Shown here: positions 33,356 to 35,215 of the stretch, one piece after another
Position numbering within the stretch: the first letter of the stretch is position 1
Layout of the letters: each line of letters begins with the position of its first letter
Source of the DNA: Escherichia phage vB_EcoM_NBG2
Reading direction: 5' to 3' (one strand)
DNA length: 64,000 nucleotides
Sequence record: NC_054925.1
The notes under the pieces: model-generated
What the model saw: the letters and a program-made list of their open reading frames with translations, nothing else
Told to the model about the DNA's origin: nothing
The model's database searches: none
Position numbers and translations under genes: made by a program

Positions 33356-33485
33356 TTTGTGAAAAAAATTTTTAAAAAGTTTTAGGGAATTCTAGGGTCA
33401 GGAGGGGCAATTAAAAGGTAGGATAATATATTATAAAGGGTATAAACTAAATGATGCCTAGAGAGGCCCGGAAAGGCCTAGATAC

Positions 33486-33516
33486 CAAAAAGCCCCAACC
33501 TTTCGGTCGGGGCTAA
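33486..33516 (-). terminator. intrinsic terminator (copy 1 of identical 31-bp element)
   Basis: Minus strand GCCCCGACC-GAAA-GGTTGGGGC followed by TTTTT; identical to 34042..34073 element. Confidence 0.6.
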
Positions 33517-33521
33517 GAATG

Positions 33522-33995
33522 TTATTTGATTTGTTTAGCAGACCAAATGCGGTCTTTAATAATTTTTTGGATGTCTTCAACATACTCAAGAGAGTGAGCA
33601 TGTGGATTATCTTTGAAACTATAAGCACGAGCTAGTTTTTGGCCTTCAGTTTTGATTACTAAAAGCTCTTTAAGGATAGCTTCATATTTGGAGATAATTC
33701 CTTTAACAATATTTTTTTCTTGTGCAGCTTTAGGATCTGCTTTAGGAGCAGGTTTACCCGAAGCCTTTGCAAAAGCAGCGCCAGTAGCAACTAGACTTTT
33801 CCAGGCCATACTAACCGCATTTCCTGTAAATCCTTCTGCTTTCATGTCGCGAGCAAATTGGAATCGCGATTCGTCAGAAGCATCTTTATAAGAATATTTA
33901 CCCGCTGCAATGGCTGCTTTTGCGACAGCTTGAATTTCGGTGCTAGATGCTTCATTTAACACCGCTTCATTTAAAAATTGAGTATATGATTTCAT
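33522..33995 (-). CDS. internal-protein-like protein with capsid-targeting sequence (158 aa, start revised)
   Basis: Start at MKSYTQFLNEA (CTS-like); Ala/Lys-rich; flanked by identical 31-bp terminator hairpins. Confidence 0.55.
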   Translation of the reverse strand: MKSYTQFLNEAVLNEASSTEIQAVAKAAIAAGKYSYKDASDESRFQFARDMKAEGFTGNAVSMAWKSLVATGAAFAKASGKPAPKADPKAAQEKNIVKGIISKYEAILKELLVIKTEGQKLARAYSFKDNPHAHSLEYVEDIQKIIKDRIWSAKQIK

Positions 33996-34041
33996 CTTAT
34001 TTCCTGTTTTAATTCGTGGATTTAATATACTAATATTTATA

Positions 34042-34073
34042 CTAAAAAGCCCCAACCTTTCGGTCGGGGCTAA
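34042..34073 (-). terminator. intrinsic terminator at end of tRNA/stable-RNA unit (copy 2 of identical 31-bp element)
   Basis: Minus strand GCCCCGACC-GAAA-GGTTGGGGC followed by TTTTT. Confidence 0.6.
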
Positions 34074-34099
34074 GCCTTGCGGCAACCTTGTCGGGGTTC

Positions 34100-34387
34100 C
34101 ACCTGCTAAGGCAAGTGTTTGTACGAAACGCCGGGATTCGAACCCGGTTATTAAGTAGTTGACGCTACTCAATATTTTTAAAAGGCCATATCTCGACCAT
34201 ATCCGAACGTTCCGTCAAAAACGCTACTCGGCTTATGGCAAAGATATTTCCTCGAATCGATAATTCGGTGCGCCGTTTCTGCTGTGATATAAGGGGACAT
34301 TAACAAAACATAAAGATTTATTAATGCCAGTCCTTAAACAGGGAACATCAGTCCGACGACTTGCCGGTAGCGACCCGGCTTCTTGTC
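34100..34387 (-). ncRNA. candidate small stable RNA region downstream of the tRNAs (T4 species 1/2 RNA equivalents?)
   Basis: No protein-coding frame; contains a tRNA-like T-arm (CCGGGTTCGAATCCCGG at 34131-34147) without a matching acceptor stem; lies between tRNA-Arg and a terminator. Confidence 0.3.
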
Positions 34388-34463
34388 TGGTCGAGGCAGT
34401 AGGGATCGAACCTACGACCCAGGACTTAGAAGGTCCTTGCTCTTCCTTCTGAGCTATGCCTCG
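34388..34463 (-). tRNA. tRNA-Arg (anticodon UCU)
   Basis: Cloverleaf read by hand: acceptor CGAGGCA/TGCCTCG, anticodon loop CTTCTAA, T-loop TTCGATC, encoded CCA. Confidence 0.8.
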
Positions 34464-34467
34464 TATT

Positions 34468-34542
34468 TGGCGGACGTGATAGGATTCGAACCTATAACCA
34501 ATCGCTTAACAGGCGATCGCTCTGCCATTGAGCTACACATCC
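34468..34542 (-). tRNA. tRNA-Asn (anticodon GUU)
   Basis: Acceptor GGATGTG/CACGTCC, anticodon stem ATCGC/GCGAT with loop CTGTTAA, T-loop TTCGAAT, encoded CCA. Confidence 0.7.
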
Positions 34543-34546
34543 AAAT

Positions 34547-34633
34547 TGGTGGGGAGTGGTGGAGTCGAACCACCCGAGTCGCAATGACAATGAATTTACA
34601 GTCCACACCGCTACCCCTACGGGATAACTCCCC
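34547..34633 (-). tRNA. tRNA-Tyr (anticodon GUA), type II with long variable arm
   Basis: Acceptor GGGGAGT/ACTCCCC, anticodon loop CTGTAAA, long variable arm, T-loop TTCGACT, encoded CCA. Confidence 0.65.
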
Positions 34634-34642
34634 AAATTAATT

Positions 34643-34717
34643 TGGTGGCCCTGGGTGGAATTGAACCACCATCTGGCGATTATGAGTCGCGTGCTTGAAC
34701 CTTCCAGCTACAGGGCC
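34643..34717 (-). tRNA. tRNA-Ile/Met (anticodon CAU; probably the AUA-reading tRNA-Ile as in T4)
   Basis: Acceptor GGCCCTG/CAGGGCC, anticodon loop CTCATAA, T-loop TTCAATT, encoded CCA. Confidence 0.7.
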
Positions 34718-34718
34718 T

Positions 34719-34794
34719 TGGTGCTGATTGACGGAATCGAACCGCCGACCTTCTCATTACAAGTGAGTTGCTCTACCTACTGAGCTAAATCAGC
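34719..34794 (-). tRNA. tRNA-Thr (anticodon UGU)
   Basis: Acceptor GCTGATT/AATCAGC, anticodon loop CTTGTAA, T-loop TTCGATT, encoded CCA. Confidence 0.8.
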
Positions 34795-34799
34795 AAAAC

Positions 34800-34889
34800 T
34801 GGCGGAGGCGATAGGATTTGAACCTATGAGTCGCCGGAGCGACTGCCGGTTTTCAAGACCGGTGCATTAAACCACTCTGCCACGCCTCC
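34800..34889 (-). tRNA. tRNA-Ser (anticodon UGA), type II
   Basis: Acceptor GGAGGCG/CGCCTCC, anticodon loop CTTGAAA, long variable arm, T-loop TTCAAAT. Confidence 0.8.
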
Positions 34890-34891
34890 AG

Positions 34892-34965
34892 TCTCCATAC
34901 AAGGATTTGAACCTTGGACCTCCTGATCCCAAATCAGGCGCTCTACCAAACTGAGCTACACGGAG
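34892..34965 (-). tRNA. tRNA-Pro (anticodon UGG), CCA not encoded
   Basis: Acceptor CTCCGTG/TATGGAG, anticodon loop TTTGGGA, T-loop TTCAAAT; 3' end followed by AC rather than CCA. Confidence 0.75.
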
Positions 34966-34975
34966 TAAATTAAAT

Positions 34976-35049
<74 letters not shown>

Positions 35050-35054
35050 AAATT

Positions 35055-35141
35055 TGGTGCGAGAAGTGGGACTCGAACCCACAAGGAAATCATTCCGCAG
35101 CATTTTAAGTGCTGTGCCTTTACCAATTTGACCATTCTCGC
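35055..35141 (-). tRNA. tRNA-Leu (anticodon UAA), type II
   Basis: Acceptor GCGAGAA/TTCTCGC, anticodon loop CTTAAAA, long variable arm, T-loop TTCGAGT, encoded CCA. Confidence 0.8.
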
Positions 35142-35142
35142 G

Positions 35143-35215
35143 CTGGGAATAAAGGACTCGAACCTTTGCATCCTGGAATCAAAATCCAGTGCCTTACCAA
35201 CTTGGCTAATTCCCA
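35143..35215 (-). tRNA. tRNA-Gln (anticodon UUG)
   Basis: Acceptor TGGGAAT/ATTCCCA, anticodon loop TTTTGAT, T-loop TTCGAGT; 1-nt spacer to tRNA-Leu (dimeric precursor arrangement). Confidence 0.8.

Follow-up and report, generated by a model that had tools for sequence, protein, structure and literature searches.

RNAs of the T4 rnaD and rnaC type in Escherichia phage vB_EcoM_NBG2 and the predicted tRNA-like fold of rnaC

We have analysed a stretch of 64,000 nucleotides (nt) of Escherichia phage vB_EcoM_NBG2 (sequence record NC_054925.1), which we will call the window; positions are those of the window, and features are on the minus strand unless the plus strand is stated. A cluster of transfer RNA (tRNA) genes ends there with tRNA-Arg. 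Between this gene and a terminator lies an interval which very probably encodes the orthologues of two small RNAs of phage T4, rnaD and rnaC: stable non-coding RNAs cut from the 3' end of the tRNA operon transcript. In T4 they are the species 2 and species 1 small stable RNAs, known since the 1970s. Their genes are textbook features of T4, so that the finding of the genes is not new. What is worth carrying forward is the structure of rnaC, which is backed by covariation, its putative kissing loop and the widespread mis-annotation of the locus.

Identity of the two RNAs

A blastn search with positions 34040-34400 against 50,697 phage records matched 800 of them. The identity of this 361-nt stretch is 100% with Escherichia phage vB-Eco-KMB39, 98% with RB27 and 93% with T4; judging from its sequence, the source of the window is a Tequatrovirus. 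In RB27 the homologous bases are annotated as non-coding RNA, namely rnaD ('species II RNA') and rnaC, and the annotation of rnaC in T4 GT7 reads 'small, stable RNA; species 1 RNA'. The original record of the T4 tRNA region, X03016, has on the homologous bases a 'species 2 RNA' of 120 nt, which ends in ...GCGCACCA, and a 'species 1 RNA' of 137 nt, which runs from CGAUUCG to ...CGUUUCGU; a 'pot. terminator' is marked after the species 1 RNA.

With the boundaries of X03016, rnaC is found at 34123-34259 and has 137 nt; the segment 34123-34260 aligns over its full length with T4 rnaC. A covariance model prepared from 22 homologues (R1) gives 160 bits to rnaC, its single match in the window. The gene is on the same strand as the tRNA cluster, downstream of it and upstream of the operon terminator. 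rnaD, mapped from the annotation of RB27 and from X03016, has 121 nt (34266-34386). It is homologous to T4 species 2 RNA and is placed between tRNA-Arg and rnaC; its first 45 nt and its last 25 nt are identical or nearly so to T4. The window thus resembles T4 by orthologous sequence, by the order tRNA-Arg, rnaD, rnaC, terminator, by the common strand and by the same lengths. It differs from T4 by point differences only, such as the 3' end of rnaD, which is ...CACCG in the window and ...CACCA in T4. For its central hairpin, the rnaD of the window has the RB27 type. The tRNA cluster also differs: it is uninterrupted (no segB) and has additional genes for Tyr, Asn and Met/Ile(CAU).

The original prediction for this interval, made from the letters alone, was a tRNA-like stable RNA at the place where T4 carries two small stable RNAs. 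This interpretation is essentially correct, given the identity of the interval with RB27, T4 and the labelled bases of X03016: both X03016 and RB27 place rnaD and rnaC here, and the alignment with the T4 species 1 and 2 genes demonstrates orthology, with the predicted T-arm as the 3' domain of species 1 RNA. The T-arm itself (CCGGG-UUCGAAU-CCCGG, 34147-34131) is real, as is the terminator which had been proposed. An Rfam search had also been suggested: no family matches the interval, and it is our own model R1 which recovers rnaC.

The RNAs of T4, RNAC and RNAD, have been detected on northern blots (PMC9697503), and the probe sequence published for RNAC matches the 5' end of our rnaC. After about 50 years no function has been assigned to them (PMC3014915, PMC9697503). 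In T4 one transcript from a middle promoter traverses the tRNA cluster and stops after the species I gene; from it the tRNAs and both species I and species II are derived (PMC2330249).

Fold of rnaC and of rnaD

We have gathered homologues of rnaC by blastn walking, by two pattern scans of IMG/VR (with 14 loci of true rnaC and 13 matches due to chance) and with R1. The set has 32 distinct sequences with a length of 137-141 nt, from at least 11 genera. It includes Tequatrovirus, Gaprivervirus, Kagamiyamavirus, Moonvirus, Karamvirus, Tegunavirus, Kanagawavirus, Gelderlandvirus, Marfavirus and Mosugukvirus, together with the unclassified relatives MY742, Erwinia COW86c and Citrobacter Ursula. When RNAalifold is applied unguided to a plain MAFFT alignment, it gives a four-way junction with the order acceptor helix, arm I, A-rich linker, arm II, an invariant A, T-arm and discriminator U. 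The minimum free energy structure of the single sequence has the same fold (-50.5 kcal/mol, z = -4.98).

The 32 sequences support this fold. With 22 sequences aligned by MAFFT, 95.1% of the cells are paired; sliding the partners lowers this to about 40%. Double changes are found in 26 of the 47 pairs, and none of 500 shuffles is as good. When the 32 sequences are aligned with the covariance model the paired cells are 93.2%, against 37-49% in the slid controls. Double compensatory changes are then present in 35 of 51 pairs, a value which is again reached by 0 of 500 shuffles.

The T-arm had been described as an orphan with no matching acceptor stem. It is no orphan, since its acceptor partner is found about 130 nt upstream: the strand CGAUUCG (34253-34259) at the 5' end of rnaC pairs with CGUUUCG (34124-34130), which is followed by the discriminator U at 34123 and then by ACA, without an encoded CCA. 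In sequences of the T4 type this helix of 7 base pairs (bp) has five Watson-Crick pairs and two central U.U pairs, and RNAalifold recovers it independently. Compensatory changes are found at four of its seven pairs in the 32 sequences; pair 3 is A-U in 10 of them and G-C in 21. The tandem U.U is present in most lineages, while Tegunavirus (CAGUCCG/CGGACUG) and Pectobacterium phage PM2 (AGGUUCG/CGAAUCU) have fully paired Watson-Crick strands. In TH15 one of the two U.U pairs is repaired. As far as covariation in the sequences can tell, rnaC has a genuine 7-bp acceptor stem.

Arm I (34183-34252) has a base helix AGG/CCU, an internal loop with a conserved UGG and a long irregular hairpin. Its main helix has double changes in 14 of 15 pairs, and its inner part has been swapped for unrelated hairpins in Kanagawa-, Marfa-, Gelderland- and some Karamviruses. 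The linker UUUAAAAA which follows (34175-34182) is single-stranded, has about 10 nt and a nearly invariant AAAA(A). Arm II (34149-34174), which X03016 labels 'pot. stem-loop structure', has a stem of 10 bp with double changes in eight of them and a 6-nt loop CGUCAA (34164-34159). An invariant A at 34148 links it to the T-arm (34131-34147), which is paired in 100% of the 32 sequences and has double changes in two of its five pairs.

The loops of the two arms are related to each other. The apical loop of arm I contains the motif UUGACG (34213-34218), the exact reverse complement of the arm II loop CGUCAA. All six loop-loop pairs are kept in 31 of the 32 sequences, and PM2 retains the core GACG/CGUC. 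There are two independent compensatory events, at different positions and in separate lineages: Tegunavirus has UUGAUG with CAUCAA (C-G to U-A), Marfavirus has UUGGCG with CGCCAA (A-U to G-C). The motif is retained even in those Kanagawa-, Marfa-, Gelderland- and Karamviruses in which arm I is otherwise exchanged. For two given loops, the chance of a six out of six complement is about 7e-4. The covariance model used for the alignment contains no pseudoknot, so that the signal is not an artefact of the alignment. Since the apical loops are perfectly complementary and covary, the sequences imply a kissing loop of 6 bp between arms I and II, which we read as intramolecular. The literature which we have covered, in which the classic papers of the 1970s-80s are not included, does not mention it.

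An alternative idea for the arm II loop, that it is an anticodon-like GUC or a site of the colicin-E5 type, was dropped in view of the 6-nt length of the loop and since the kissing partner accounts for its variation. We have also noted that the 9-mer GAGUAGCGU appears twice in rnaC, at 34162-34170 in arm II and at 34221-34229 in arm I, and nowhere else in the 64-kb window, where 0.2 occurrences are expected. GUAGCG is complementary to CGCUAC, which is the invariant hairpin loop of rnaD with its closing base. We considered GAGUAGCGU as an internal repeat or as a site which pairs with the loop GUCGCUAC of rnaD and dropped both ideas, because the structural surroundings of the two copies differ and genera without rnaD have retained them.

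The nature of rnaD is different: it is conserved mainly at the level of sequence, and its fold is unlike that of rnaC. In an alignment of twelve distinct sequences (A2) about 45 nt at the 5' end are invariant (AAGAARCCGGGUCGCUACCGGYAAGUCGUCGGACUGAWGUUCCCUG), as are about 25 nt at the 3' end (UCACAGCWGAAACGGCGCAC); this 3' part ends in ...GGCGCACCG in the window and in ...GCGCACCA in T4. Between these flanks there is a hypervariable central hairpin (about 34290-34335 in the window, columns 53-105 of A2), with at least four unrelated versions: the types of T4, of RB27 and the window, of JS98 and of the record G4507. The consensus fold has a 5' hairpin GCCGG-GUCGCUA-CCGGC (34379-34363) with one covarying pair, a long irregular hairpin and a closing helix which pairs GUCGUCG with CGGCG-C-AC near the 3' end. 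RNAalifold and pair counts give 96% paired and double changes in eight of 26 pairs, mostly in the central hairpin. The pairs of the closing helix are invariant and are therefore uninformative on the fold. No tRNA-like module was seen in rnaD, though in T4 its final letters are an encoded CCA (CCG in the window). The reverse complement of its 5' hairpin, on the plus strand at 34363-34379, has a terminator-like score which is probably incidental.

tRNA-like features, possible role and alternative explanations

In rnaC the 7-bp acceptor is coaxial with a 5-bp T-arm, which has a loop of the type UUCRANN and is followed by a discriminator. The discriminator is U in all 32 sequences, and the consensus UUCRANN is found in 31 of them. 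A GG in the internal loop of arm I, beside the 3-bp AGG/CCU junction helix, is also kept in 31. The exception is the Enterobacter phage MY742 (L014, 498-636), the sole sequence with CG in place of GG and the sole one with a different T-loop, UGCAUGC. The conserved GG probably contacts the T-loop in the manner of a tRNA D-loop, and the double change in MY742 hints at this. It could be a compensated tertiary contact similar to G18:U55, or MY742 could be a decaying copy.

The boundaries of rnaC also have features in common with tRNAs. Position -1 is U in 27 of the 32 sequences and A in the other five; in the window it is the U at 34260, at the end of a short spacer GAAUUA-U which joins rnaD to rnaC (34260-34265). 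The 5' boundary in X03016 coincides exactly with the first acceptor base pair. At the other end the discriminator is followed by ACA; tRNA-Pro and tRNA-Gln of the window have no encoded CCA either. Outside the T4 group rnaC is located between two tRNA genes, with tRNA-like spacers of 7-9 nt. RNase P recognises the minihelix formed by acceptor and T-arm, and U at position -1 is favoured. From this recognition we infer that RNase P makes the 5' end of rnaC and that the tRNA 3'-end pathway makes its 3' end. The minihelix would let RNase P cut between U-1 and C+1, the enzymes which finish the 3' ends of tRNAs would act here as in the CCA-less tRNA-Pro and tRNA-Gln, and this route of processing would explain the metabolic stability of the RNA. 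The T4 species 1 precursor is reportedly a substrate of RNase P, with a mature RNA of 140 nt.

The comparison with canonical tRNA (RF00005) can be summarised as follows. Both have a 7-bp acceptor without spacer, a 5-bp T-stem, a 7-nt T-loop (UUCGAAU in rnaC) and a single discriminator; rnaC is also found within tRNA operons, with tRNA-like spacing, U at -1 and a possible elbow between GG and the T-loop. On the other hand rnaC has 137 nt, no D-arm of the tRNA type and no anticodon arm with 5 bp and a 7-nt loop. In their place there are arm I, with 70 nt, and arm II, with 10 bp, the loops of which would pair with each other; the linker is A-rich and the acceptor has a tandem U.U. ARAGORN does not call it and RF00005 does not match it even at E <= 10; the best match in the clan is tRNA-Sec with 17 bits. 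Since the D and anticodon arms are absent and the tRNA models fail, rnaC is not a tRNA.

The tRNA-like domain of transfer-messenger RNA (tmRNA) is a parallel in one respect: an acceptor/T-arm module is joined to a large insert which is not tRNA-like, and maturation by RNase P is implied. rnaC differs from it by having no tag reading frame, no pseudoknots of the tmRNA type and no G3.U70 pair for alanine identity, since A-U or G-C is found instead. ARAGORN is negative for tmRNA, and the permuted-tmRNA model of Rfam gives 10 bits on the T-loop only. The Y-RNA-like YrlA of bacteria and phages, the tRNA-like structures (TLS) at the 3' ends of viral RNAs and mascRNA are tRNA mimics which recruit tRNA-processing or tRNA-binding proteins. 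By functional analogy, rnaC may be compared with them as a non-decoding copy of the acceptor/T-arm. It differs by its kissing arms I and II and by the lack of a recognisable Ro/Rsr-binding helix, and Rfam has no match of rnaC to Y-RNA-like or other families of tRNA mimics.

As a working guess, we suppose that rnaC acts as a tRNA mimic which binds a tRNA-recognising factor of host or phage, and has no decoding role. A more specific version, which we consider rather unlikely, is that rnaC is a dedicated tRNA mimic which occupies or diverts such a factor, with rnaD as a second, sequence-specific partner. In this version the acceptor/T-arm module with the GG/T-loop elbow would present a tRNA-like face, and the kissing loop of arms I and II would compact the rest of the molecule. 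Candidate targets would be a host defence nuclease which attacks tRNA, an enzyme which modifies or repairs tRNA, or the capacity of RNase P or of the CCA enzyme. If it were true, an RNA which has been an orphan for 50 years would be a counter-defence or host-takeover RNA spread over the enterobacterial Tevenvirinae, and the role of rnaD as a partner would be limited to the group of Tequatro-, Mosig-, Gapriver- and Dhakaviruses. The structure of rnaC makes mutate-and-rescue and pull-down experiments concrete.

Several points weigh against parts of this picture. The ends of rnaC differ by 1 nt on each side among GenBank records (137 or 139 nt), as the annotations of RB27 and T4 have one extra nucleotide at each end with respect to X03016. 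The percentages of nested pairs are inflated in the alignments A5 and A6, which were fitted to the nested structure; the alignment made with MAFFT only (A1) gives 95%. Each of the two covariation events in the kissing loop belongs to a single lineage, and the contact could be intermolecular, in a dimer. The contact between GG and T-loop depends on one sequence, that of MY742. Cleavage by RNase P, the state of the 3' end (with CCA or not) and the modification of the T-loop are presumed from the structure and from the T4 literature of the 1970s. The function of rnaC as a decoy or mimic is no more than the hypothesis which we prefer, held with low confidence.

Three other explanations we find very improbable. 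The original prediction had considered a tRNA remnant, that is, a decayed and functionless tRNA gene of which nothing but the T-arm is left. The failure of ARAGORN and of the Rfam tRNA models and the absence of a D-arm and of a 7-nt anticodon loop would agree with it. However, all 137 nt, including the arms which are not found in tRNA, are conserved in at least 11 genera with compensatory changes in 35 of 51 pairs. The acceptor helix has not broken down, northern blots show the T4 orthologue to be stable and abundant (PMC9697503), and neither covarying helices nor a covarying loop-loop pair are expected in decay. The remnant reading fails, because the whole RNA is under structural selection.

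It is equally hard to believe that the 3' 94 nt form a genuine, if unusual, decoding tRNA, although some records annotate them as tRNA-Lys(ttt) or 'tRNA-OTHER' and Rfam gives the tRNA-Sec match with 17 bits (E = 1.4, 34123-34215). This value is far under the Rfam gathering threshold of 47 bits, and the would-be anticodon falls within the A-rich linker. In T4-type sequences an internal 8-nt segment, ACGGAACG, can pair with the 3' end. This internal acceptor, ACGGAACG with CGUUUCGU, is ruled out by covariation: none of its pairs shows compensation, and 11 of 22 sequences disrupt it, at precisely the place where the 5'-terminal acceptor covaries. Small protein-coding genes have hardly a better claim. 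Dozens of records have annotated coding sequences (CDSs) beneath the match, including one of 45 amino acids (aa) with a ribosome-binding site (RBS) in Marfavirus, and the interval of the window has open reading frames (ORFs) of 34-42 aa. Nevertheless stop codons interrupt every frame, on either strand, in several lineages, the homologues vary in length by 1-4 nt, and the substitutions are paired compensatory changes. The original prediction had rightly found no convincing ORF here: none exceeds 42 aa and no frame stays open across the homologues.

A purely cis-acting element at the 3' end of the operon deserves more attention, though we also think it improbable. It would be a platform for processing or a barrier to exonucleases, with rnaC and rnaD as stable by-products. 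Both are indeed the last segments ahead of the terminator, and rnaC is missing altogether in the Dhakavirus JS98. Deletions of the T4 tRNA region were reportedly viable in laboratory hosts, in the work of Wilson and Abelson in the 1970s, which we have counted in its favour. Against it, rnaC is found between tRNA genes in Karam-, Moon-, Kagamiyama-, Teguna-, Gelderland- and Mosugukviruses, and not at the end of the operon. The invariance of loops, linker and discriminator suggests that a partner recognises them, and rnaD has 70 invariant nucleotides outside helices. Furthermore a single-nucleotide polymorphism of rnaD appeared convergently in a T4-like phage while it adapted to a new, semi-permissive host (PMC12685909). 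A cis-acting role at the end of the operon is possible for the trailer which follows rnaC.

Distribution and surroundings of the locus

The two RNAs have a different distribution. Conservation of rnaC extends from Tequatrovirus as far as Marfavirus, Gelderlandvirus and Mosugukvirus. rnaD is confined to the group of Tequatro-, Mosig-, Gapriver- and Dhakaviruses; the other genera have rnaC without rnaD. In JS98 (L005, 711-900) rnaD is joined directly to the trailer and the terminator. From the clean absence of rnaC there, it behaves as a module which can be inserted or deleted, like the adjacent tRNA genes. The gene before rnaD is not always tRNA-Arg; in several phages it codes for a protein. 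We also scanned 185,579 bacterial and archaeal genomes, one per species, with a pattern of arm II and T-arm; there was a single match, due to chance, in a coding region. Within the limits of this pattern, rnaC therefore looks specific to phages.

At the gathering threshold of Rfam the tRNA genes alone are matched, with nothing in the rnaD/rnaC interval; at E <= 10 there are only weak matches at the level of chance (tRNA-Sec with 17 bits, isrK, anti-hemB and the permuted tmRNA on the T-loop). No Rfam family covers rnaC or rnaD, and as a result hundreds of phage genomes routinely have no annotation, or a wrong one, at this locus. In some Tequatroviruses it appears as 'tRNA-Lys(ttt)' (G4507; L015, 473-566) or as 'tRNA-OTHER' (G9062), in Marfaviruses as the 45-aa CDS with RBS mentioned above (L048-L051, about 316-454) and in many other records as one to three 'hypothetical proteins'. 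Our data on rnaC would support a submission to Rfam.

A second oversized tRNA-like element is found in Klebsiella phage KLB31 directly 3' of rnaC (L013, 654-784); it has about 131 nt and is identical in MY742 (L014). It has a perfect 7-bp acceptor GATTTGT/ACAAATC, a D-arm-like sequence GTGGTGAAATTTGGTAGACAC and a canonical T-arm, with about 75 nt in place of the anticodon arm. Neither ARAGORN nor Rfam call it. It could be a tRNA with an intron or another expanded tRNA mimic.

In the window ARAGORN finds ten tRNAs at 34388-35215. The last of them is tRNA-Arg(UCU) at 34388-34463, with an encoded CCA and 65.8 bits with RF00005; no tRNA or tmRNA is called by ARAGORN in 34074-34387. The T-loop core GGTTCGAATCC, with at most one mismatch, has eight occurrences in the window, where 0.62 are expected. 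All of them are on the minus strand, from 34134 to 35164: seven are in tRNAs and one is in rnaC.

rnaD and rnaC are the final products of the tRNA operon, before a strong intrinsic terminator (34043-34071) with a 10-bp stem, a GAAA loop and U5. The 3' trailer between rnaC and the terminator (34072-34122, 51 nt) has two or three small hairpins, one of them with a GCAA loop, and is kept in T4 and JS98; it may be a candidate site of RNA processing, with some doubt. No late promoter of the type TATAAATA is found directly upstream of rnaD or rnaC.

The operon terminator is duplicated: a direct repeat of 36 nt, 97% identical, is present at 33482-33517 and 34039-34074. The two copies flank an ORF of 157 aa (33525-33995), which belongs to phrog_2280 and has no Pfam match. 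A late-promoter-like TATAAATA is found at 34041-34034, just past the first terminator. The ORF is present in RB27 and not in T4, where e.8 directly follows the terminator; it looks like a gene cassette which was inserted with duplication of the terminator.

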